Shown: piece after piece, positions 1 to 14,019 of the stretch
Position numbering within the stretch: position 1 is the stretch's first letter
Layout of the letters: each line of letters begins with the position of its first letter
Assembly (NCBI GenBank): GCA_963847445.1
Contig: CAWJZV010000023.1
Span: forward strand, 1-64,000
Direction: 5' to 3'
From: an uncultured delta proteobacterium
GTDB lineage: Bacteria; Desulfobacterota; Binatia; UBA9968
Length of the DNA stretch: 64,000 nucleotides
Program-made: the position numbers and the translations under genes
The notes under the pieces: generated by a model
The model's database searches: none
Seen by the model: the letters and a program-made list of their open reading frames with translations, nothing else
Told to the model about the DNA's origin: nothing

Positions 1-1069
1 AGCGCGATGCCATCTGCCGCGGGTTCGCCAGCGGCTGCCACTTCCCATTCCGCTTCCGTGGGCAGGCGCCGGCCGGCCCAATGGCAGAAGGCTTCAGCTT
101 CGAACCAACTCACATGCACCACCGGCAGGTTTTCGTTCAACGGGACATAGCGGTCGTAGACGCGCTGCTGCCAGCGGCCGTTATCGAGCGGTTGCCAGTA
201 AACTGGATGATCGAGTTTTTCCTTGTAGGCGGCAATTTCCATCGGCTCAGTGACGTTCTTGTTGAAGAACTTGGCAAAGGATTTTTCCAATTGCGGCGCG
301 CCGCCTGATTCGAGCCATTGCCAACCTTCGTCGCTCCAGTGCTGGCGCTCACGATAACCGCCTGCTTCGACGAATTGCAAAAACTCACCGTTGGTCACCG
401 GTGCGCGGGCGATACGGAACGGTTTCACGTCAGCCTCGTGCGCCCACTTCTCGTTGTCGAAAATAAACGGCATGTCTCTGGTCGCGCCGATGGTGAACTT
501 GCCGCCGGGAATCTCGACATCGCCGGGACAAGCGCGCGGATTCTAGTCTCGCCCACAGCAGACGGTTGAAGAAACGACGGAGGCGGATAGCCGAGAGTCT
601 GGCGCGTGTAGGCGAGCGCCTCGTTATGCATGGCTTCGTGAAATGTCGTCAGCCAGTAAAAATAGAATTCTTCCGGTGAAAGTTCGGCCTTGCCATCGAT
701 GCGTGAAACGCAGCGCTCGATCACTTCGTTAACATAGGCCAAAGTGTTTTCCCGGCTTGGCAGCAGTAATTCCCAACGGGTGTCGTGGGCAACTTCGGTG
801 GAATTGTAGAGCCGGTCGCCGTCCGGCAGGAGCGGTTTTTCACCGCCCAGGTGTCGTCGCGCCCAAAATTCCTGAGTCCAGGCGACATGGCCGATTTCCC
901 AAAGCGGCGGATTGACGATCGCCAGGCGCGGGCCGATCATCTGTTGGTCGTCGAGATCGGCCACGAGACCCAGCAGGCGCGCGCGGAACTCGCGCATGGT
1001 GGCGACTAGTTCGTTGACGCTCATGGTGGCTATTGGTCCGGCTGCTGGGCTTGGACTCATCTTCGGCAT
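1..1069 (-). CDS. senA: SenA-like selenoneine synthase / EgtB-family non-heme Fe sulfoxide synthase (DinB + FGE domains); frameshift near 540, runs off left edge
   Basis: NPPLWEIGHVAWTQEFW, VAHDTRWELLLP and H-x3-H-x-E (HEAMHNE) motifs; after the frameshift the alternative frame reads FIFDNEKWAH...PVTNGEF...[25 protein letters not shown] (FGE-sulfatase fold). Confidence 0.8.
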
Positions 1070-1155
1070 TGGTAGCGAAAAATTCTTGACCGATTCAATT
1101 AAGCAAGTTTACAACGGGGAATTTCTTGTATTGATCTAACGCATATCTCCGCGCA

Positions 1156-2296
1156 TCACAAACCTGCAACCAATTGAGCGATGGCCTTGGTCCACGGCGC
1201 TAATTCTTTCGCCCAGCGCCGACCGCGATTTCGTTCAACGTAGGCGCACGCGGCCTGCAGTCGGCGCGTGTCGGCTGTTGTCAGTGGCAGCGGGCGTTTC
1301 TCCTTTTTGGCGACGATGCTCGCTTCAGCAAACCTCCTGAGCGCACGCCAATCGGGTATCGCCTTGGCGCCGAAGCGCTGACGAACGATCTTCGTCCAGG
1401 ACGATTCCGCGCGGTATTTGGCCGGCGCCCGCGCATAGTCGAAGCAAGTCGCCAATGGAACGAAGCTCAACTGTTCTTGGAGCAATGGATTGTTAAGATA
1501 GCCATAAACAGCTTCGGGCAAGCGCAGATCGCGTCCGGTAAGCGGCCCGATATGCAGTTCGTCGCTCATGGACAGGTCGTTTACCGGATAATTGTCCCAC
1601 AGGAGCAGGGGTCGCTTAATCTTCTTGGCGATGCGCCGTACGTGGGCGAGCGTGATGCTTTTTGAAACCACTGACGGCCCGGTCCAAAAGCAGGGGATGT
1701 TTGGCGGTAGATCTTGCGCCAAGGTTTCTAGAAAATGCGGTTCAAATTTGCCGAAGACCCTTTCGAGCAGGGCATCTTCGCTGTAATAGCTCGGACAAAT
1801 CCACCACTCGACAGCGCTCCAACTCGCCGGCTGGGCGGCGATGATGGTTGCCATCCAGGTTCCTTCGGCGCGCGCCAGACTGTTCTTGAATGCGCGGCGG
1901 TCGCGCGGGTCGCTCAAGCGCGACGGTATATCGTCGAACAGGACTGTGAAGGTGCGCACGCCGGCATCGTAGAAGCGCTGCGCTTTGCGGAGAAGAACGC
2001 GAACGGCGCGATCGTCGCCAAAGTACAAACCCTCGCCGGGATGAAAACCGTAGACGAAGTCAATTTGAGTTCTTTGCGCAGCTCCAATCAACCGCAGTAG
2101 CTCGCGCCATTGCGCATCGGGGTAGGGCCGTCGCCAAAACTTTCGATGATACGGATCGTCTTTTGGGGCATAGAGATAAGTATTCATCCCCCGCGCCGCG
2201 CCGAATGCGAACATTCGCTGCCGATGCGCCATCGACCATAGTGGACCGAAGAAGCCTTCGGACGATGCCGCGGCGGGGGAAGTCGGCGGGCTTCAT
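1156..2296 (-). CDS. GH84 beta-N-acetylglucosaminidase (O-GlcNAcase/NAGidase catalytic domain), no signal peptide; frameshift near 2260
   Basis: Removing one C gives MKPADFPRRGIVEGFFGPLWS; YLYAPKDDPYHR, catalytic LFDDI, FWTGP and LWDNYPVND are GH84 signatures. Confidence 0.88.
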
Positions 2297-2459
2297 GCCG
2301 CGCTAATTTTGCCCAGCAAACGCTGGAGGAACATGATTGCGGCTGTTCATCGGCGTGGGGCGAGGAATGATTTAGCGATTTGGTCTGAGACTAGGGAGAC
2401 CTGCTGTCGAAGAGTCAGGTGAGTAGAAACGACCACGCGCGGTTCTCCCAAGCTTCTCC

Positions 2460-3317
2460 CTAGCTTTTTAAAAACGGTACGCCCAAGCGCATCAGGTCGT
2501 CGAAAGCATCCCAATGCACCATGTGCTTGCAGCCATTGACAATGTGGAGGTTGAGCTGTGGTTGCTGTTTTTTCAGCAATTCGGCGCGTTCACCGGCGTG
2601 GGCGCGATCTTCGCGGCCAAACATCATCAATAGCGGCATCTTTAGGTCGGCGAGTCTCTCCCATAACGGTTTGGCCGGCGCCGATGCCCCGGCAGGAGCC
2701 GCGGGGGCGTCGTGACTCTGGCGGTCCTGGTGTGCTTTGAAATTGCGGCCGATCATGCTGCGGTGGCGTAGGGCGACGTCTTCATCGGAGATCAGCGAAT
2801 GGTTGAAGGTGTCCGCCTGCAGGAGTTTGCGGGCGTCCTCCAGCGTCGGTTCCTTTTCCGCCATCTCCTTGTCGACCCGCGCCTGTACTGCTTCGTACCT
2901 GCCGACCTGCGCTTCGGTCTGCAGCGGCAGTAGTGAGCCGGTGCCAAGAATGACCACGTGCGAGTAGCGGCTGGGGTCTTCCAATGCCAGCTGAATCGCG
3001 AAGCCGCCCGAGCGTGAGTGCGCCATCAGCGCGGTCTTGCCCAGGCCCGCGGCATCGATGAATTTCGGGATGGAATTACGTTGCTGGGCCGTGCTTTGCT
3101 TGGCGGGAATGTCGGAGAGGCCAAAACCTGGATAGTCGAAAGCGACGGTGCGAAATCCGGATTTGGCAAAAGGGCCGAGATTGCGCAGAAACACATCCGC
3201 CGAACTCCCGAGCGATGCGCCGTGCAGAAACAGCACAGAGGGTCCCGAGCCTTCTTCGATATAACGAAGCTTCAATCCATCGACGCTGACGAATTTGTCT
3301 TCCGGTTTGGCTGTCAT
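2460..3317 (-). CDS. alpha/beta-fold hydrolase
   Basis: VLFLHG, D-x-PGFGLS, nucleophile elbow AHSRSGG, C-terminal HMVHWD. Confidence 0.88.
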   Translation of the reverse strand: MTAKPEDKFVSVDGLKLRYIEEGSGPSVLFLHGASLGSSADVFLRNLGPFAKSGFRTVAFDYPGFGLSDIPAKQSTAQQRNSIPKFIDAAGLGKTALMAHSRSGGFAIQLALEDPSRYSHVVILGTGSLLPLQTEAQVGRYEAVQARVDKEMAEKEPTLEDARKLLQADTFNHSLISDEDVALRHRSMIGRNFKAHQDRQSHDAPAAPAGASAPAKPLWERLADLKMPLLMMFGREDRAHAGERAELLKKQQPQLNLHIVNGCKHMVHWDAFDDLMRLGVPFLKS

Positions 3318-3797
3318 GTCATAATCTCCCTATTAACTTAGAATATAATTCTAATCTGCCTGTGCGTGGCCATAGGCCGAGTGTATTTGCTCCATGGCCA
3401 CCTCGTTCAAGTTTAGGAAATCTCTACAGGAAACACCCTCAAGGTGTCAATCGCAAGAATGATTCGTCACAATCGCGGGTTTGCTTCTGTTGGGATCAGT
3501 ACTTATCCCTTGCGCCGATTTCGAACAGCTGCCGCTGATGGGCTGTCTATCAGAGGGGATCGAAGAAACTTTCGGCGATGCTGTGGTGCTTAAATGTTTT
3601 GGCCTCGATAATGACGGGTTAATCTTCCATAGCTTCGCTAACGGAACAAGTTTGGCGTAGCCTGAGATGGCCAATACAGTCGAGTCGATTGCGTTGGAAG
3701 AGAGGGGTAGGGGGAGGCTTAGGTGGTTCTTGGTATGAAGTCGACAGGATTTACTCTAAGCAACAGCGTTAACTGCCGAGTTGACGTCGAGTCGTGA

Positions 3798-4334
3798 TTA
3801 TTTTTGCCGCGTGCCCCGCCGCCGTTTTTCGATTTCAATATCAACCTGCCGTGATTTTTCGATGGTGTATTTGAGCTTGTCTTTTTCCTGCAACAAAGCC
3901 TCCCGTTCCTTATTAAGGCTTCGCTTCTCGTCGGCGATTTTTTGATGTTCCTCAAGGACCGTAATCCAAGTCTTGGCGGAATCTACCATCGGACTCTGAG
4001 GGTGTTCTTTGACGAGAGTGCGAAACGACGAAAGGGCGCGAGGATAGTTTTTTTTCGGATTGGTCGGATGGGCCGAAATCATTCCCATATTGAAAAGCGC
4101 TGTGTCGGGAGAGCCCCTGCCGTCGTGAATAATTTTTTGGTTCTCAAGGATAGCGGCTTCGTACTGCCCCTGAGAGAATAGCGCCTTGCTTTGCTCGAAG
4201 GGGTCGGTCCGATGTTCCACCATGGGAACCGGCGGCGGCACTGGCCGGTCGTTGATGGACGAGCATCCGGACAGGCAGACTCCCAAAAACAGCGTTCTCC
4301 ACCACAATGCACTGCTTGACACCCGCGACTTCAT
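3798..4334 (-). CDS. TPR/coiled-coil lipoprotein, QseG/YfhG-like
   Basis: Lipobox LSGC, TPR-like ALFNMG...ALSSFRTLVKEHPQS, coiled-coil tail; ATGA overlap with the upstream gene. Confidence 0.7.
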   Translation of the reverse strand: MKSRVSSSALWWRTLFLGVCLSGCSSINDRPVPPPVPMVEHRTDPFEQSKALFSQGQYEAAILENQKIIHDGRGSPDTALFNMGMISAHPTNPKKNYPRALSSFRTLVKEHPQSPMVDSAKTWITVLEEHQKIADEKRSLNKEREALLQEKDKLKYTIEKSRQVDIEIEKRRRGTRQK

Positions 4335-5050
4335 TTCGTGGCACCGTGACCTTTCCGCCAAAGCTGAAAACGCAAGAATTTCTTTATCCCGGCCCGGCCC
4401 ACGCCCCACGACCGTCCGCCTTCTTGGGATATATTGGCGCCGAGATAGCAGGCAAAAAATATCCCCATCACGACCAATACCAAAGTGGCCGCTAGAGTGA
4501 TCTTTTGGCTTTTCATTGCCGCGTGTTCAATGTATTCGATTCTTTCCTGCAGGCTTTTCTGGACATCGCTCTTAAACGCCTCATGTTCCCTCAGCAAATA
4601 ATCGACGAGGCGTTCCTTTTCTTCGCGATAGCGCGTTTCCGCATAGGGCTGCTTGGTCTTGATGTAAACGACTTCTTTCTCGAACAATTGACGATATTGG
4701 GTATGGTACTCCTCAGCGCGGGTAAGGCGCTGCACCGTGCCGCTTGCGCCGGCGAGTGGTTTTAATTGAGCGATGTACCGGTCGAAGTCGGATCTGAACT
4801 GGAGATATTGCTCATGATGCTGGGCGGCATGGGTGACGTTGAACTGGCCCGCGTATCTGACCTCGGAAAGGAAAGCATCGGCAAGTTTTTCCGAGTAGTC
4901 GATCATACGCTGGTCAACCTTGAGCGCAATGTTCGCCGCATTGCTGAGCTTTCCCAGCTGAATTATCGAATAACCCGACACCGCGACCATCAGGATCAAC
5001 ATCGATGAATAGCCAATAATAAAACGGTGGAGCGTGGATCGCGTAATCAA
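4331..5050 (-). CDS. Two-TM protein with periplasmic four-helix-bundle sensor domain and no kinase domain
   Basis: TM at N-terminus, helical periplasmic region, second TM (ITLAATLVLVVMGIFFACYL), short cytoplasmic tail. Confidence 0.65.
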   Translation of the reverse strand: MITRSTLHRFIIGYSSMLILMVAVSGYSIIQLGKLSNAANIALKVDQRMIDYSEKLADAFLSEVRYAGQFNVTHAAQHHEQYLQFRSDFDRYIAQLKPLAGASGTVQRLTRAEEYHTQYRQLFEKEVVYIKTKQPYAETRYREEKERLVDYLLREHEAFKSDVQKSLQERIEYIEHAAMKSQKITLAATLVLVVMGIFFACYLGANISQEGGRSWGVGRAGIKKFLRFQLWRKGHGATK

Positions 5051-7462
5051 AGGTCAACCTCCATGGATGGGCGCGGAGTAACGACAGCGATGGATGAAGT
5101 GCCGGCGAGACGATCCTCTTCGAGAAAGCCCATCGACGAACTAATGGGGAGGCGTACGGTGAACGTCGTCCTCTTCTCCTAGCTTGCTGTAAACGTTCAC
5201 CGAACCGCCCATCAGTGCGACGAAACTCTTGACCAGGTAAAGCCCGAGTCCGGCGCCGGAATAATCGCGCGTGGTGGCGCTGTCGATCTGATTGAATTTG
5301 TCGAAGATGTGCGGCAAAAACTCCTCGGCCATGCCAATGCCCGTGTCCGATACGGAGAATTCGATAAACGGCTCGTCGGGCACAGAGCGAAATAATATAT
5401 CCACCGAACCTTGATCGGTGAATTTGATCGCGTTGTTTACCAGGTTGATCGCCACTTGGCGAAGCTTCATGCGATCGGTTACGAGGTTTGGCAGATCGGC
5501 CGCTATCTGCCAGTTTATCGCCAAATTTTTTTCTATGGATGCCATGATATAGTCGGATTCGAGCTCGCGTACGAGTTCGTTAAGATTGATGGGTTCCGGG
5601 TTGACGGCCATAGCGCCGGATTCAATCTTGGTTATTTCCAGAATGCTGTTGATCAGCGACAGCAGATGGCTGGCCTGCACGCGAATTTTTTCCGTGCCTT
5701 TGCCATGTTCCGGGGTGATGTCGCCGAATACGCCCATGTTCAGCGCTTCGGAGCAGTTCATGATGATATTGAGCGGCGTCCGCAGTTCATGGGAAATGAC
5801 TCCAAGAAATTCGTCTTTAATCCGATTCGACTTCTCCAGCTCCACCGCTTGATTTCTGGTCTGTTCAAACAAGTGTGAATTATAAAGTGCGATGGCAGCC
5901 TGGTGCGTGAGGTCCGCTAAAAAGGTTTCTTCTATCCGTAAGTCGATTGTTGCCGTGGAGTAACAGGACAGGACGCCCAATACTTCGCCTTTGACAACCA
6001 TCGGTAGACCCAGGTAAGTGACCAAGCCCGCGGCGCGCAAGGATTCGGGATCGGAAGCGCGGGGATCCTTTTGAGCATTTGATATCAGCAAGGGAGATTT
6101 GAGTTTGAAGACCTCCAAAGGAAAGCCGCTTTCGCTCTCCGCGCCAGCTAACTGGCCCACGTGGTCGATTCGCGGTGACTGTGCGATAGGCTCGAGCCTG
6201 CCGCTTTGCTGATCCAGCCAGCGGATTGATACACAGGAAGAGGGAAACAGCGGGGCGACTCCCTCCGAGAGAGCAGTCAAAACATTGCCGACGTCGAGAC
6301 TGGAGGTCATCGCTGTGCTGATTTCGTGGATGGCGCTCTGACGTAGGTGTTGCTTTTGAATCTCAGTCTCAGCCACTTTGGCGTCGGCGGCGCGTTGCTC
6401 TAAGGTTTTAGCTAAATCGTCGAATGTCCGCGCCAGATGGCCGAGCTCGCTCGCGCCATAGGGTAGGCCAGTCCGCGCCTTCAAGTTACCACCGGCCAAT
6501 TCCTTAGTTGCACCCACCAGATCGGACACACGGCGCAGCACGAAGAGATCCGCGCCGAACCAGGCTGCGATCAAAGTCAACGCCGTCAGGACGCTAAGAA
6601 TGATTAGGTTTTCCCGAAGTATGTGTTCGGATTCGGCAAACGCTGCCCGCGCCGGTATGTCGATGCCGGCATACACAACCCTTCCGCCGATCCGGTGGTC
6701 TAACTGCCGGTAGGTGAAGAGCTGCGCAATTCGGTCGACGCCTGTGGACTCTATATTGCCCTCGACACCTCGAATCAATTTGGTTTTGCCGGCACTGTCC
6801 GTGTGAACTCGCTTGCCAACTGGCGCGGCTTCGTCGGGGTAGCTGAGAAATGTCTTGCCATTGTCATCGAAAAGCGTAAATGAGGCCCCGGACGGAAGAT
6901 GATTCTTTGCCGTGATTCTGACGATCCAGGAATAGTCTAAGACTACGAAAGCGATGGCGCGCAGACTACCGGTTGATTCGCCGATGGGGAATCCCAGCTC
7001 GACGACCGTCTTGCCGTTGGATGCATCGCGTTGAATCTCACCCACAGCGATATCCCGAGATTCGACAACCCGGCCAACGTAGGAGTTCTTCAGGCGTCGG
7101 CTTTGGAAGATTTGTGACCCTAAAGCATTGCACAACAGATTTCCCTTGGCATCGACTACGCCGAGATCGACGTAAAGCGGCTCCAGGAGGCCGGCGAGGA
7201 TCTTTGCGCATGCAGCGGCATTGCCCTCGCGGAGTTGTGGTAGTCGCGCCAGAGTAATTAGGAGTTGGTGCGCGTTGTCAAAAATTCGGCGCTGTTCGGT
7301 GGCGATGACACGCGCCGATCCGAGCGCGCTTTTCTGTACCTGGTCGGCAATTGAGGCACGGTGTCGTTGATCGGTAAATAAAATGACCCCAAAAGCGGGG
7401 AGAACCGCGAGCAGAACAAAGGCGATCAGGCGAGCCCGAAGGCTTGAGGCGAACCGAATCAT
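5047..7462 (-). CDS. Sensor histidine kinase (Cache-HAMP-GAF-HisKA-HATPase); frameshift near 5172
   Basis: SHELRTPL H-box, NLVNNAIKFT N-box, DTGIG, GAGLGL; corrected end TTFTVRLP...EVDL* abuts the next start. Confidence 0.9.
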
Positions 7463-8046
7463 GTCCCGTCCGTTTTTAAGAATCTCGCTGTAACTTTCTG
7501 TCGGTATTTCGACGGATTGGTCAAGCAAATGCTGCACCAGACCATTCGGCAGCGCTCAAGCAAGATTCTGAACATCTAAAGAACTTCTGGGAAGGGTTGT
7601 CACAGGAGGGCAATGTCAAGAAGCTGCAAGTGTATCGTTGGATGATCAAAACCGCACACCAGCGGAGTACGCGGGAGGTACCGAAAGATTTGCCATGTTG
7701 CGTGGGCACGACGGGCCATCAATCGGGTCGACTCGATTGATCTTGCGGCGCAGGGACAGACAAGCGATGGAACTCAAGCCGCCCAAGGACATTTGGTTAC
7801 GATGCCACTTTCTGTGCCTGTCGCCGGGCGCGTCGCTACGGCCAAGGTCCACGACAATTCCATGATATTTCTTTGAATAGCGGTTGGACGGAGCCGCTAA
7901 AGATCTTGCAGGCAACGGTTTCTTTTCTCAATGTCGATCGGTCGCAACCCGTGAGCGTATTCGCTGACGAAGTGGTGTCGCGCCAATCGTTTACTTGCCA
8001 AGACCAATGGCTTTGCGTAGGATCACGGCGAGAGTTTACTACCGCG

Positions 8047-8854
8047 ATGAAGCCGCGATTCATAATGCTTTTTGTTCCAGCCATAGTTACTGTTTTGGCG
8101 ACTGTCGTGGCAGTGTTCGCTCAGTCCAGAGAGAGCAGCGAGCTGATCCGCATTCCTGCCGGGTCGTTCCCAATGGGCAGCAATGACGGCCCGGAAGACG
8201 AACGGCCGCAGCATCGCGTCGACGTGGCGGAATTTTTCATCGATCGCACCAAGGTGACGAATTCCCAGTTCGGCTTATTCTTGAACGCCATTGGACCGGT
8301 CGGTCCGCAGGGAGAAAAATTATTTCGACATCGACGACAACGACGCGCGGGTGCATCGGCGTGATGGTAAGTGGTCGGCGGATGCGGGTTTCGAGAATAA
8401 TCCGGTGGTCGAGGCATCTTGGTACGGTGCCGTTGCCTATTGCCGATGGACTGGGAAGCGCTTGCCGACGGAAGCGGAGTGGGAGAAAGCCGCGCGCGGC
8501 ACCGATGCCAGAAAGTATCCGTGGGGAAATGAACCTCCTGATCGCTCGCTCGCGCACTTCGGAGGCGGTTGGAACGATCTCAAGCCGGTCGGCAGCTTTC
8601 CCAAGGGGGCGAGTCCTTACGGTCTTCTCGATGCGGCGGGTAACGGTTGGGAGTGGGTGAGCAGTGGCTATCTGCCCTATCCCTACGATTCAAAAGACGG
8701 TAGGGAAGACTTGAGCAAGGATCTGGTGCGCGGCACTCGCGGCGGCGGCCATGACGTTGGCGCCGACGAATTGACCACGACCCACCGCGGTCGTCATGTG
8801 TCGCGTAATCCGCGCGGCGGTCATCACAATATTGGCTTTCGCTGTGCGCGCTAA
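8047..8854 (+). CDS. Secreted FGE/SUMF1-sulfatase domain protein; frameshift near 8320
   Basis: Signal peptide, [41 protein letters not shown]. Confidence 0.88.
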
Positions 8855-8879
8855 CGCGCGCGGAGCGCGAAGATATTTA

Positions 8880-9524
8880 ATGCCAATCTCTTACGTCATC
8901 CAAGGAATTCTCATCGGTTTAGCGGTCGCCGTGCCGGTGGGGCCGCTCGGTTTACTCTGCATCAATCGCTCGCTGATGCTCGGTGCTCTCGCTGGCCTCG
9001 CCTCCGGGTTGGGTGTCGCCAGTGCGGATGCGCTTGTCGCCGGCATCGCCGCGCTGGGGATTTCATTGGTTTCTGATTTTCTTATTGAACAGCAGTTTTT
9101 GCTGCGTTTGATCGGCGGCATCTTTCTGTGCGTGCTCGGGTATCGGATTTACCGTATCGAACCGGCGGTGAAAGTCCCGACGATTTCTACCAATGGGTTG
9201 CTCGGCGCCTACGCGACGACATTTTTTCTGACCGTTTCAAATCCGGTGACGATTCTATCGTTTATCGCGATCTATGCGGGTTGGCATGTGCCAAGTCTGC
9301 GTGGCCACTACCCGGCGGCGGCGCTGTTGATGGCCGGGGTCTTCATTGGCTCGGCGCTGTGGTGGGTAGCATTGTTCGCTGGGCTGACTTTGTTCCGGCT
9401 CAATATCAGTAATGGATTTTTGGCGATGGTTCATCGGGTCACCGGCATCGTGATCGTCGGTTTCGGAGTTGCTGTGCTGCTAAGTCTGTCGCCTTTGAAG
9501 CACGCCGTGAATTTTACCTTCTGA
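8880..9524 (+). CDS. LysE/RhtB family translocator
   Basis: AVPVGP...CINRSL, GLGVASAD, LTVSNPVTILSF; about 6 TM segments. Confidence 0.88.
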   Translation: MPISYVIQGILIGLAVAVPVGPLGLLCINRSLMLGALAGLASGLGVASADALVAGIAALGISLVSDFLIEQQFLLRLIGGIFLCVLGYRIYRIEPAVKVPTISTNGLLGAYATTFFLTVSNPVTILSFIAIYAGWHVPSLRGHYPAAALLMAGVFIGSALWWVALFAGLTLFRLNISNGFLAMVHRVTGIVIVGFGVAVLLSLSPLKHAVNFTF

Positions 9525-9526
9525 CT

Positions 9527-10501
9527 ATGGTTCGCCAGGCTGAAACCACCGTGCAACGCGGCACTGGAGGGCCGGATGCGATCAACTGCGGTCTCGCGCT
9601 CTTTTACCTCGGCGTTAATCTCTTGGAGTTTTTCCTATTGCCATTATTGCTGTTGCCCCGTGACCCGCGATGGGCTTGGCTGCTCTTGCCGCTGGCGCTT
9701 TTGACCAATCCATTCTGGAGCCTGCTTCACGAAGCGATTCACGACCTGCTGCATTCGACTAAATCGGTGAACCTGGTCATCGGGCGAATGCTGGCGATCA
9801 TGTTCGGCTCGCCGTTTCGCATCCTACGGTTGAGTCATTTGCTGCACCACAAGCTCAACCGCATGTCTGTTGAAGGCACGGAGTACTACGATCGGGACAA
9901 GGGCAGCAAGTCTGGTGCGGCGCCGGGATATTATTTTCAGATTCTTATCGGCCTGTACTTGGTCGAAGTCATCAGCCCGCTTTATTTTTTCTTGCCGCGG
10001 CGTTGGCTCGAGCGATGCCGCCAGCGCTATCTGCCGGCGCAAAGCCTCAGCAGTATTTTAATGCAGAGCTGGCTGGGTGCCGAATCGCTGCGCGAGATTC
10101 GCCGCGACGGGGCGTTGACGATGGGATGGTTGGCCTTGGCATTTTACTCATACGGTCCGCACTGGCCGTTGCTGCTTGGTGCGTTGGCGGCGCGCGCCTT
10201 GTTAATCTCGTTTCTCGACAATGTTTATCACTACGAGACCCCGGTGAGCGATGTGTTTTTTGCCAAGAATTTGAGCCTGCCCGGACCATTAGCGGGTTTG
10301 TTGTTAAATTTTAATTTGCACGGCATTCATCATATCAACCCGGCGATCTCGTGGATCGATTTGCCCAAGGCGTTCGACGCTCAGGCGGGCAAGTACCATG
10401 GCGGCTATTTCGCCACGGCACTGCGCCAACTGCGCGGTCCCATCGCCCTTCAGGATCTCCCCCAGGGGGCGCCGGTACTGCGTGTGCGGCCTTATCTCTG
10501 A
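9527..10501 (+). CDS. Membrane fatty-acid desaturase family di-iron protein
   Basis: Three His boxes HEAIH, HLLHH and HGIHH with TM segments. Confidence 0.85.
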   Translation: MVRQAETTVQRGTGGPDAINCGLALFYLGVNLLEFFLLPLLLLPRDPRWAWLLLPLALLTNPFWSLLHEAIHDLLHSTKSVNLVIGRMLAIMFGSPFRILRLSHLLHHKLNRMSVEGTEYYDRDKGSKSGAAPGYYFQILIGLYLVEVISPLYFFLPRRWLERCRQRYLPAQSLSSILMQSWLGAESLREIRRDGALTMGWLALAFYSYGPHWPLLLGALAARALLISFLDNVYHYETPVSDVFFAKNLSLPGPLAGLLLNFNLHGIHHINPAISWIDLPKAFDAQAGKYHGGYFATALRQLRGPIALQDLPQGAPVLRVRPYL

Positions 10502-11526
10502 GCTGATTTGCGCAACAAGAGCACGGAAAACCATTCTTGCGGATCGGTGTAGTGGGCGACCGGCTGTAAGCCGAGGAAGCCCAATTGCTCCTGCAAGCGG
10601 TTGGGTTCGAACTTGCGGCTGATTTCTACCAAGATGCGTTCATTCCGATTCCAGGTAAAAGCTGCGTTGGCGCTGGGGAAGCTGATGGTCTGGTCTTCGT
10701 TGGCCACCGCGTACATCTCGATCTGCTGCCACTCGGGATTGAACCAGGAGTGATAGCGCATTTTGGCGCGATCGAAGTTAGCGCCGAGCAGCCGGTTGAT
10801 GTTGCCGAACACGTTCAAAATAAATGCCGCGGTGATGCCGCGGCTGTCGTTGTAGGCGGGTTCCAGAATAGTCTTGTCTTTGACCCGGTCGGCGCCCAGG
10901 AGCAAATAATCGTTGGCTCCCATCGCGTCCGCGAGGGCGCGGAAGAAGCGCGGGAACTCGGTCTGATTGAAGTTGCCGATGGTGCTGCCGAGAAAGACGA
11001 AAAGCGTCGGCAGATTCTTGTCGACGGCGGAGAAACCTTCTTGGTAGCGCGAGTGGATGCCGTGGAACTGGATTTGCGGGAAATCGCGGCGCACCGCCGC
11101 TTGGGAGGCGAGCAGACCGGCGATGCTGACATCGATGGGCGCGAACTGGCAGCCGCCGCGCTGGCGCAATTGTTCGGTGAGCAGGTGGATGGTTTTTTTG
11201 CTGTAACCGGCGCCGAGCTCGACGATGCACTCTACCGGTGCGGCGGCGATGATGTTTTTTGCCTGAACTTCTAGGATGCTATTCTCGGTGCGGGTCAGAT
11301 AGTATTCCGGCAGTTCGCAGATATCTTCGAAGAGTTGCGAGCCTTGGTCGTCGTACAGGTGGTAGGCCTCGAGCCAGCGCGGGTGGTCCCACAGCGTGGT
11401 CAAAATCGACAACGTCGGCACCGAGTCGAGATCGGCGCCGCGCAGCGACCAGATTCCCGCAGGTTCGGAGGACCAGCGTGATGTTTCATCGGCGCTGAAA
11501 ATAGTCGGTAAGGTTTGCTGTTCCAT
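10492..11526 (-). CDS. egtD: L-histidine N(alpha)-methyltransferase (hercynine synthase)
   Basis: YDDQGSQLFEDICELPEYYLTRTE, VELGAG, FLGSTIGNF, AYNDSRGITAAF, IEM, EISRKF. Confidence 0.9.
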   Translation of the reverse strand: MEQQTLPTIFSADETSRWSSEPAGIWSLRGADLDSVPTLSILTTLWDHPRWLEAYHLYDDQGSQLFEDICELPEYYLTRTENSILEVQAKNIIAAAPVECIVELGAGYSKKTIHLLTEQLRQRGGCQFAPIDVSIAGLLASQAAVRRDFPQIQFHGIHSRYQEGFSAVDKNLPTLFVFLGSTIGNFNQTEFPRFFRALADAMGANDYLLLGADRVKDKTILEPAYNDSRGITAAFILNVFGNINRLLGANFDRAKMRYHSWFNPEWQQIEMYAVANEDQTISFPSANAAFTWNRNERILVEISRKFEPNRLQEQLGFLGLQPVAHYTDPQEWFSVLLLRKSAQR

Positions 11527-11693
11527 GGCCCGGGTGACTATAAAAGAAATCAATTGAATTCGCGAGCCGGGTTTGAACCCCGCTCGCGCCCAAAGGGGAT
11601 GCTCGCCCCCTTTGGAAACTCCATTTAATTGTCTCCGCCTCAAGAGGCGGAGTTAAATGTCTTCTAGAGCGGATGCGACCGGGCGCCATCACC

Positions 11694-12463
11694 ATGAGCA
11701 ATAAATGAAATCGCCATTGAGTTTCGCGATGTCAGCTTCGTTTTGCCGGGCGGCAAGACCCTGTTGGCCCATCTCAATTTGCAGGTTGGCCGGGGCGAGA
11801 CCTTGGTGCTGCTTGGGCGCAGCGGCTCGGGCAAGACCACGACGATGAAGTTGATCAACCGCTTGATCGACCCGACCGCCGGACAAGTAATCATCGACGG
11901 CAAGCCGACCGTGGACTGGGATCCGATCCAACTGCGCCGGCGCATCGGCTATGTGATCCAGGAGATCGGCTTGTTCCCGCACCTGACTATCGAACAAAAC
12001 ATCGGCGTGGTGCCGCGGCTGGAGGGTTGGCAGCCGGAACGAATTCGGCAACGAGCCTATGAGCTGTTAAATCTGGTCGGTCTCGACGCCGAGCGCTTTC
12101 GCCGGGCGCATGCCGCGTGAGCTTTCCGGCGGCCAGCGCCAGCGCGTCGGAGTGGCACGCGCGCTCGCCGCCGATCCGCCGGTGATTCTCTTGGACGAGC
12201 CCTTCGGCGCCCTCGATCCGATCACCCGGCGCGGCATTCAACAGGAGTTCAAAGCCTTGCAGCAAAACCTGGGCAAGACCATGGTGTTCGTCACCCACGA
12301 TATCGCCGAGGCGTTCGTCCTCGGCAGCCGCATCGGGCTGCTCAAGGACGGCGAGATGGTCTTGCTCGGCGCGCCCGCCGATCTGCTCCAATCGTCTCAT
12401 CCGGAGGCGCGCGCCTTCGCCGCCTGCTTTCACGACGGCCAGGCAATCGGGAGACCGGCGTGA
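11694..12463 (+). CDS. OpuA/OsmV/EgtV-type ABC transporter ATPase; frameshifts near 11702 and 12105
   Basis: [47 protein letters not shown]. Confidence 0.9.
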
Positions 12464-14019
12464 CACTGTTGGAATTCTTCACCCACAATCGCGGCGAGCT
12501 CGGCGAGCTGGTCTTGGAGCATCTGTTTCTCGTCGTCATCTCCACCGGTATCGCCGTGCTGATCGGCGTGCCGCTGGGCATCTTGCTGACGCGCCGGCCG
12601 GCGCTGAGCAAGCCGATCTTAGGTTTCGCCAATATCATGCAGACGGTGCCCAGTCTGGCGCTGTTCGGTTTTCTCATCCCGCTGAATATTTATTTATTCC
12701 AGGTTAAAATCGTCGGCGGCATCGGCGCGCGCACGGCGATCGTCGCCTTGGTGCTCTACTCGCTGCTGCCGATCATCCGCAATACTTTTACCGGTATCAG
12801 CAATGTCGACCCGGCGATTCGCGACGCCGGCCGCGGCATGGGCATGACCGACCGCCAGTTGTTGTTGCAAGTCGAGCTGCCGTTGGCGTTGGGCGTGATC
12901 ATCGCCGGCGTGCGCGTCGCCACGGTGATCTGCGTCGGCACCGCGACCATCGCCGCGGCCATCGATGCCGGCGGCTTGGGCCGCTATATCTTTCGCGGTT
13001 TGCGCGCCAACGACAACGTGCTCATCCTGGCCGGCGCGGTGCCGGCGGCGCTGATCGCCATCGCCGCCGATTTACTGCTTGGCTATTTCGAGAAAACCAT
13101 TCAACTCGGTGCGGCGGTGCGCGGCAAGTCGAAGAGCTTGCTGTGGGCCAGCGCTCTGGTCGTTTTGGCGGTGCTCGGCGGGGTGTACTTTTTCAACAGT
13201 AATAGCGGCGGCCGCATCGCCGTCGGTTCCAAAGATTTCACCGAGCAAGTCATTCTCGGCGAGATCGTCGCCCAAGCGATCGAGGCTAAAGCTGGCCTGC
13301 AAGTGGTTCGTCGTTTCGACCTGGGCGGCAATCTCGCCCATGAGGCGCTCATCGGCGGCGAGATCGACGTTTACGTCGAATATACCGGCACGGGGCTCTT
13401 GGCGATCTTAAAAGAAAAGCCCTTGGCCGATCCGCAGGAAGTCTTGCGCCGGGTGAAATCGGCCTACGCCGCGCGCTTCAAACTCGAATGGACCGAACCG
13501 CTGGGGTTCAGCAATACCTTTGCGATTCTCGTCCGCGGCGACGATGCCAAGAAGCTTGGCTTAAAGACTGTCAGCGACGCGGCGAAAGTTTCGTCCCAGT
13601 GGCGTGCCGGTTTCGGCCAGGACTTCATGTCGCGTGCCGATGGCTATCCGGGTTTTTCCAAAGCCTACGGACTGCACTTCGAGGCCACCCGCGAGATGGA
13701 TTTGTCGCTGACCTATCGCGCGTTGGCGGAGAACCAGGTGGATCTCATCGCCGGCAATTCAACCGACGGTTTGATCAGCCGCTACGGCTTGTATCAATTG
13801 GCTGATGACCGGCATTATTTCCCGCCCTACGATGCCGTGCCGGTGGTGCGCCAGGCGACGCTGGAAAAATATCCGGCGCTGCGCGCGGTGCTCAAACAGC
13901 TCGGCGGCATTCTCACTGTCGATGAGATGCGTAAGCTGAACTACGCGGTGGACGGCGAGAAGCGCCAGGCGAAGGAGGTCGCGCAGGAATTTTTACGCGG
14001 CAAGGCAGTGTTGCGTTAA
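12460..14019 (+). CDS. Fused permease + substrate-binding protein of a quaternary-amine ABC importer (OpuBC/OsmF/EgtU-like)
   Basis: QTVPSLAL and EAA-like DAGRGMGMT permease motifs fused to [15 protein letters not shown] and YFPPY binding-domain motifs. Confidence 0.9.

Follow-up and report, generated by a model that had tools for sequence, protein, structure and literature searches.

The DNA analysed here (the window) covers the first 64 kb of contig C23 in a metagenome-assembled genome (MAG) of an uncultured Binatia bacterium, and it begins within a pair of adjoining genes, one encoding a beta-N-acetylglucosaminidase of family GH84 and the other, senA, an enzyme of the selenoneine synthase type. 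All of the parts are known from other systems; what is new is the arrangement, in which GH84 is followed by senA and then, in the relatives, by senB. This arrangement suggests a step, so far undescribed, in which sugar is removed or recycled in the selenoneine pathway. Our leading interpretation, held tentatively and at somewhat short of even confidence, is that the window opens in a selenoneine operon in which GH84 is a dedicated accessory hydrolase, most likely acting on hercynyl-SeGlcNAc, the conjugate of hercynine with the selenosugar form (SeGlcNAc) of N-acetylglucosamine (GlcNAc). The MAG comprises 7.19 Mb in 48 contigs, with 91.8% completeness and 6.9% contamination, and position 1 of the window is also the start of contig C23, leaving no sequence to the left of senA.

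The two genes are co-oriented, both lying on the minus strand, as do the alpha/beta-hydrolase and egtD genes described below, and the spacer between them (1070..1155) is 86 nt long, in agreement with the initial annotation; the motifs listed there (NPPLWEIGHVAW, VAHDTRW, HEAMHNE and LFDDI) were likewise all recovered from the translations of the window. GH84 (1156..2296; Pfam NAGidase, 240.2 bits) encodes a predicted cytoplasmic enzyme composed of a TIM barrel and a C-terminal helical bundle. Its long frame extends over 1156..2232, while the ATG used by relatives lies at 2296 in a different frame. This is the only GH84 copy in the genome, and it is 81-85% identical to intact orthologues of 380 aa. 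As the domain begins near residue 10 in the relatives, there is no space for a signal peptide, in line with the initial annotation; its description of an isolated catalytic domain needs correction, since the C-terminal helical bundle of about 65 residues is also present. senA (1..1069) is represented by the 5' portion, about 80% of the gene, which is ended by the contig start after approximately residue 369 of roughly 470-490 and carries a one-base frameshift. The first frame (425..1069) encodes a DinB_2 domain with the iron-binding histidines (GHVAW, HEAMH; Pfam DinB_2, 44.1 bits), and the second (3..548), open at the contig start, encodes an FGE-sulfatase (C-type-lectin-like) domain (Pfam FGE-sulfatase, 106.3 bits). 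The frameshift site is in the variable interdomain linker (542..566), with the frame switching between 566 and 548. Residues 188-369 of the SenA of a relative (G004) were aligned by tblastn to positions 548..3 in frame -1, and the intact SenA of that genome, a protein of 489 aa, shares 76% identity with one window fragment and 89-90% with the other. No terminator-like site was present on the minus strand of the spacer. In a promoter and terminator scan of positions 1-3800 the counts were not above those of shuffled sequences, and the scan is therefore silent on co-transcription; among the 20 runs holding the GH84-senA stretch, none is on record as RNA.

Profile comparisons assigned the first protein to the SenA type and not to canonical EgtB, as had been proposed initially. 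The cut-offs used were 420 bits for NCBIfam SenA (NF041186), 300 for SenB (TIGR04348), 360 for EgtB, 290.9 for EgtD (TIGR03438) and 25 for NAGidase. On the 382 positions of the SenA profile, the truncated and frameshifted window copy scored 157.2 bits (profile positions 4-160) and 170.5 bits (188-307), compared with 49.5 and 144.1 bits on the EgtB profile, while the intact orthologues scored 481-519 bits for SenA, 309-348 for EgtB and 125-168 for OvoA. The solved structures closest to Binatia SenA are those of OvsA (8ux5, 347 bits; 8u41, 337 bits), followed by Variovorax paradoxus SenA (8k5i, 256 bits) and EgtB (4x8b, 212 bits). Three positions are known to set the specificity for hercynine and for C2, and these are occupied by Y366, N395 and F396 in SenA versus M401, Q430 and A431 in OvsA (PMC11030361). 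When aligned to the OvsA-YNF structure 8ux5, all 63 Binatia SenA sequences carried the Y, N and F residues together with the three iron-binding histidines and the catalytic tyrosine; in the window, both domains and the three histidines are present, and the positions of the tyrosine and of Y/N/F fall beyond the contig start. Because Y, N and F were found in 63 of 63 sequences, the Binatia enzymes are predicted to be hercynine-type, C2-selenylating SenA proteins. The alternative assignment to OvsA (ovoselenol), raised from the best PDB match, was rejected because of the Y/N/F motif and the nearby egtD gene, and an EgtB (sulfur) assignment was rejected as well, as the best EgtB match of the genome reached 182.7 bits against the cut-off of 360 and covered the FGE half only. 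Independently of the window, a second EgtB/SenA-like gene with a weak DinB part was observed in the genome (G000:C30:51384-52419; 182.7-185.2 bits on the FGE half), and roughly a dozen genomes of the window's genus have similar copies of about 215-227 bits.

The gene order was compared in two sets of relatives. The first comprised 41 genomes of the order, namely the window's genome and 40 relatives from three GTDB families, and included one genome (G005) flagged as unpublished, the removal of which shifts each count by at most one. The second was obtained from a pattern scan based on the GH84 alignment over 185,579 species genomes, which yielded 275 relatives, of which the best 80 were scored (one locus per species, gene order by tblastn). 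The 80 loci, most of which carry the label Candidatus Binatia or 'uncultured delta proteobacterium', overlap with the 41-genome sample and are kin, and are thus not independent. Of the 41 genomes, 35 had GH84, 35 had SenA over the cut-off and 34 had SenB. GH84, senA and senB followed one another on one contig in 26 of the 40 relatives (16 from the window's own genus, and 10 of the 11 in family f3). Two further relatives had GH84 followed by senA with senB not found; three, all of family f2, had GH84 followed by senB with senA elsewhere on the chromosome; three carried GH84 on a contig different from that of senA and senB; and six had no GH84. The presence of GH84 agreed with that of senB in 36 of the 41 genomes (32 with both and four with neither), and of the five mismatches, three coincided with a contig break or an incomplete MAG. 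Three of the four genomes without GH84 and senB (G010, G018, G031 and G033) were also without SenA above the cut-off.

A similar picture emerged from the best 80 loci, 61 of which showed the co-oriented order GH84-senA-senB, while six showed GH84-senA with the sequence ending before senB and four showed GH84-senB. Three loci had too little downstream sequence to judge, and six of the 77 informative ones, one of them from an unpublished genome, were without a downstream sen gene. In five unlinked cases examined for this, SenB was encoded elsewhere in the genome in three and SenA in four; one of these cases (G245) is the unpublished G005, and among the four published ones, two had both SenA and SenB elsewhere and one had SenA only. 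The median distance from GH84 to senA was 107 nt, and the gaps of at least 900 nt contain an alpha/beta-hydrolase gene. The gene order was preserved down to 56-60% GH84 identity and across the three families, and in the GH84 tree the copies unlinked to sen genes were nested among the linked copies. The adjacency is thus conserved well beyond the window's genus. A grouping with canonical EgtB and an adjacency not kept in relatives had been named beforehand as outcomes that would count against a GH84-SenA link, and none of the outcomes of this kind that could be looked for here was found.

The features of the GH84 protein are those of an active enzyme of its family. In 73 GH84 sequences, D122 and D123 (of FDDI), K46, Y172, W234, N236, D241 and N270 were invariant. 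A model of the closest intact orthologue (predicted local distance difference test, pLDDT, 93.4; predicted template-modelling score, pTM, 0.92) was superposed on the Thermobaculum terrenum enzyme 5diy with a template-modelling (TM) score of 0.85 at 30% identity, helical bundle included, and it also superposed on other GH84 enzymes; the sequence match to 5diy was 223 bits. Judging from the conserved residues and the model, the GH84 enzyme appears to possess all that a working member of the family needs.

The remaining genes of the pathway, senB and senC/selD, for which the initial annotation had advised looking in the surroundings and in the whole genome, were largely located. The gene directly after senA in the relatives is senB (TIGR04348, 339-418 bits in 33 of the 41 genomes, against the cut-off of 300). 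In the window's own assembly senB was not found (best match 36.8 bits); as the contig starts inside senA, this missing hit is no sign of absence. Aligned to V. paradoxus SenB (8jjq), the Binatia protein keeps N20, T23, Q131, K158, E231 and E239, which are described as important residues of SenB (PMC10891094), and has Asn in place of H235. The literal motif EGGAHV was absent in 57 of 60 cases, because the motif reads EGSSNV in Binatia SenB. In the SenB of one relative (L042:6911-7867), for instance, EGSSNV stands where the beta-proteobacterial protein has EGGAHV, and Asn takes the place of H235, the residue in contact with C-4' of the sugar; judging from the sequence, this replacement could alter the preference for the sugar donor. 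A selD gene with one in-frame TGA is present in the window's genome on another contig (C14; G000:C14:194887-195726), unlinked to the sen genes, and there is no clustered senC. SelD exceeded the cut-off in 39 of the 41 genomes, never near sen genes, and contained one in-frame TGA in 38 of these 39. The only SelD is thus presumably a selenocysteine-containing protein that would have to meet the needs of selenoprotein synthesis as well as those of the sen pathway. The supply of hercynine is represented in the window by egtD, encoding a histidine N-alpha-trimethylase (10492..11643; TIGR03438, 298.4 bits; Pfam Methyltransf_33, 311.7 bits), 9.4 kb from the sen genes, and egtD lies less than 7 kb from GH84 in 25 of the 80 loci.

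Compared with the canonical senABC system of V. paradoxus (bioRxiv 10.1101/2022.04.13.486033), the Binatia share a SenA with Y/N/F, the key residues of SenB, and egtD and selD in the genome, but they differ in having no clustered senC/selD, the sole SelD being unlinked and carrying an in-frame TGA, in the SenB motif EGSSNV instead of EGGAHV, and in the presence of GH84, often with a second hydrolase, before senA and senB. The ovs cluster (OvsA, OvsM, SenB and SenC; PMC11030361) includes in OvsA the best structural match of Binatia SenA, and a selenosugar donor and selenoxide elimination are common to both; however, the Binatia enzymes have Y/N/F where wild-type OvsA has M/Q/A, and egtD is nearby. 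No OvsM-type methyltransferase was seen in the flanks scanned at the Binatia loci. Taken together, the Y/N/F residues, the nearby egtD and the lack of a visible OvsM in these flanks suggest that the predicted product is selenoneine and not ovoselenol. With the cytoplasmic bacterial GH84 O-GlcNAcases (T. terrenum 5diy, Clostridium perfringens NagJ and Bacteroides thetaiotaomicron BT_4395) the Binatia enzyme shares the fold, the Asp-Asp pair and the GlcNAc-binding residues, whereas it is minimal in size (380 aa, with no carbohydrate-binding module or extra domains), belongs to a clade tied to senA and senB, and has no O-GlcNAc transferase (OGT) partner that could be found; its proposed aglycone is a selenoimidazole and not a protein Ser/Thr. 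EgtE and EgtC of ergothioneine synthesis follow the same logic as that proposed for GH84, in which the carrier part of the chalcogen donor is removed after C-S or C-Se bond formation, although a pyridoxal phosphate-dependent C-S lyase and an amidohydrolase are unrelated in fold and chemistry to a glycoside hydrolase.

Our literature search returned no paper tying GH84, or any N-acetylglucosaminidase, to selenoneine. Neither of the stems 'glycosid' and 'hydrolase' appears in the main text of the report on senABC (bioRxiv 10.1101/2022.04.13.486033), the supplements of which may list rarer sen-neighbour genes, and GH84 is absent from the 30 families within 5 kb of this enzyme class given in the main text of a 2026 census (PMC13674229), whose supplement may likewise list more.

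From the gene identities, catalytic residues, gene order and pathway genes described above, we infer the following substrate and physiological role for GH84. By the known steps of the pathway, EgtD would provide hercynine, the unlinked SelD would provide selenophosphate, and SenB would form SeGlcNAc; SenA would then join hercynine and SeGlcNAc into hercynyl-SeGlcNAc selenoxide. The SenA reaction leads to a selenoxide and, in the presence of a reductant, to the hercynyl-SeGlcNAc selenoether (bioRxiv 10.1101/2022.04.13.486033). As a dedicated accessory enzyme for the GlcNAc moiety of the pathway, GH84 would hydrolyse the beta-GlcNAc-Se bond of hercynyl-SeGlcNAc through the substrate-assisted (oxazoline) mechanism, its substrate being either the selenoxide or the dead-end selenoether produced from it by cellular reductants, and its products would be selenoneine (or the corresponding selenenic acid) and free GlcNAc for re-use. 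We rank hercynyl-SeGlcNAc first among the possible substrates because, in a reducing cytoplasm, part of the selenoxide should end up as the selenoether, because selenoimidazole is a good leaving group, and because human O-GlcNAcase is said, in work by Macauley from 2005, to cleave thioglycosides without general acid catalysis. Carried further, this interpretation would add GH84 to selenoneine biosynthesis as its fourth enzyme and make it the first natural hydrolase of selenoglycosides, with a last step that is enzymatic and not spontaneous, a claim that we regard as possible but on balance doubtful. If it is true, the reduced selenoether would be rescued, and GlcNAc would be returned instead of 2-acetamidoglucal.

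Several points weigh against the hydrolysis of hercynyl-SeGlcNAc. In the published pathway (bioRxiv 10.1101/2022.04.13.486033), the selenoxide undergoes a spontaneous and reportedly fast elimination, so that no extra step is needed, and no counterpart of EgtE is required. In addition, Cys-S-GlcNAc was reported to be non-hydrolysable by O-GlcNAcases (PMC8386111, PMC10636738); the cleavage of chalcogen glycosides is thus not a given, and the leaving group decides. Among 201 Burkholderiales genomes drawn evenly, senB was detected in 79 and any GH84 in only two, unlinked in both, and 77 of the 79 senB-positive genomes were without GH84, which is therefore dispensable for selenoneine synthesis there. 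In family f2, GH84 stays beside senB with senA elsewhere, an arrangement that fits a role on the sugar side equally well or better and makes the link of GH84 to the selenosugar side at least as strong as that to SenA. Finally, both genes of the window copy are frameshifted, a point taken up below. Glycal salvage and selenosugar turnover are, as a consequence, live rivals to the hydrolysis of hercynyl-SeGlcNAc.

The distribution in Burkholderiales also bears on the generality of the arrangement. As GH84 was present in only two of the 201 genomes, 79 of which have senB, the GH84 in sen clusters is a lineage-specific variant and not a general feature. In a phylum-wide draw, SenB was found in none of 201 genomes at E <= 1e-40 with at most 10 candidates scored per genome, while the same search was positive in 34 of 41 in the relatives. 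Three MAGs labelled Betaproteobacteria or Burkholderiales (L096, L101 and L105) carry a Binatia-clade GH84 that is unlinked to their own senA and senB, and the copy in L105 shows a long branch and an odd composition; horizontal transfer or mis-binned contigs could account for these copies.

Retaining glycosidases hydrate glycals, and N-acetyl-glycals bind tightly to GH84, GH20 and GH3 enzymes. The alternative that survives best, although we consider it unlikely, is a salvage of the by-product, in which GH84 would hydrate 2-acetamidoglucal to GlcNAc, thereby removing a potential hexosaminidase inhibitor and recycling the sugar. The compound is a plausible substrate in so far as 2-acetamidoglucal was detected as a product of OvsA and the same elimination was proposed for SenA (PMC11030361), and the association of GH84 with senB instead of senA in family f2 suits a role in sugar economy. 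On the other hand, our literature search gave no paper tying hexosaminidases to the hydration of 2-acetamidoglucal, the 77 senB-positive Burkholderiales genomes do without GH84, and the glycal, if mainly an inhibitor, would block the enzyme rather than turn over.

A second alternative, which seems improbable, is that GH84 splits SeGlcNAc itself, or imported selenosugars, into GlcNAc and selenide, either buffering the selenosugar pool or salvaging selenium for SelD. The position of GH84 beside senB in all the arrangements with a senB, kept also when senA is elsewhere, is in line with this proposal, as are the occurrence of SelD in 39 of the 41 genomes and an AmpG-like permease, of a family that carries GlcNAc-containing cargo, which is convergent to senB in 33 of the 80 loci. 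However, co-expression of such a hydrolase with senB would amount to a futile cycle consuming uridine diphosphate-GlcNAc and selenophosphate, and the permease is absent from those f3 clusters that retain GH84-senA-senB.

It is quite improbable that GH84 is a housekeeping GlcNAcase, engaged in peptidoglycan recycling or in the removal of protein O-GlcNAc, that merely adjoins the sen genes. The nearest solved structures are indeed bacterial and human O-GlcNAcases, the AmpG-like permease is near many loci, and one MAG (G244) has GH84 with no SenA or SenB match. Nevertheless, a gene order held to 56-60% GH84 identity across three families, and the co-presence or co-absence of GH84 and senB in 36 of 41 genomes, argue against a chance neighbourhood. 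Moreover, a search for an OGT of family GT41 (PF13844) at E <= 1e-5 gave no hit in the 91.8%-complete genome (the control was positive in two of 14 genomes), which makes a role in protein O-GlcNAc unlikely, and the window's genome contains a GH3 NagZ-like gene available for muropeptide recycling, so that GH84 is not needed as a substitute for NagZ.

The frameshifts raise the further alternative that the cluster is decaying in this strain, with the frameshifts in GH84 and senA being real and both genes pseudogenes, to which we give little credence. The assembly does read as frameshifted in both genes. The window GH84 has an extra C near 2260/2261 that is absent in all six aligned relatives. Logan contigs from four runs of four studies, aligned to window positions 1-2500 and about 98% identical to them, were in all four runs one base shorter at 2260/2261 and one base longer behind 542 or 544. 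None of these four runs is identical to the window, the long pieces differing at roughly 1.5-3% of positions, which leaves some room for decay in this particular strain. However, near-identical DNA in four of four runs lacks both indels, and the frameshifts are for this reason most likely assembly errors. Frame changes relative to intact relatives also occur in at least three unrelated genes of the first 12.5 kb, namely a histidine kinase (at about 7440-7465 and the C-terminus), an FGE-like gene (about 8309-8325) and an ABC (ATP-binding cassette) ATPase (about 12093-12098), yet these are still 86-95% identical at the protein level. Decay is further opposed by the titles of the related records, which point to long-read MAGs, and by the lack of internal stops in GH84 and senA beyond the shifts. 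Positions 1-12500 of the window are indel-prone in general, with frame changes in at least five genes (GH84, senA, the histidine kinase at 5141-7537, the FGE-like gene at 7873-8854 and the ABC ATPase at 11704-12460), and an annotation of this MAG based on open reading frames will as a result split many genes.

The weakest proposal is the ergothioneine branch of the initial annotation, in which GH84 would allow a thiosugar version of the pathway to release ergothioneine; it found no support and is very improbable, there being no EgtB over the cut-off in the genome and nothing pointing to a thiosugar source, and neither 'thiophosphate' nor 'thiosugar' occurring in the text of PMC10891094.

The surroundings of the GH84 and sen genes contain further hydrolases. 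In the window, an alpha/beta-hydrolase gene (2460..3317; Pfam Abhydrolase_1, 71.0 bits) lies upstream of GH84 in the same orientation, and a homologue with more than 45% identity was found in 25 of the 80 loci. Within the window's family, the second hydrolase accompanying GH84 is this alpha/beta-hydrolase, encoded upstream of GH84 or in the interval between GH84 and senA (L059, L062, L093 and others), while in family f3 about 21 loci (e.g., L114:5851-6969) have an unrelated Amidohydro_2 gene immediately upstream of GH84. That two non-homologous hydrolases occupy the same place hints at a further pathway step. The AmpG-like permease mentioned above, a member of the major facilitator superfamily (e.g., L042:5652-6902; TIGR00901, 240.8 bits against a cut-off of 350), shows 66-90% identity and is better conserved than senA or senB.

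Farther from GH84, positions 7873-14019 of the window encode an FGE-sulfatase-like periplasmic protein that carries a signal peptide, an exporter of the LysE type, a membrane protein resembling fatty-acid desaturases and EgtD, together with an ABC ATPase and a fusion of a permease with an OpuAC binding domain, and parts of this set recur in 16-35 of the 80 loci. Such a fusion is also the architecture of ergothioneine importers, and the set may represent a module for the transport and handling of hercynine, selenoneine or ergothioneine.

Selenoneine biosynthesis is currently described as the work of three enzymes followed by a spontaneous elimination. The retention of a hydrolase gene before senA and senB across three families of Binatia, which are common in soil, suggests that enzymes control what becomes of the sugar in these bacteria. 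Whether the sugar is released from the selenoether, 2-acetamidoglucal is cleared or the selenosugar is turned over, such control, if true, would extend by one step a pathway that is of interest for nutrition and biotechnology and could raise the yields of selenoneine in engineered producers, and it would provide a GH84 enzyme that acts in nature on a small selenium metabolite and not on a glycoprotein.

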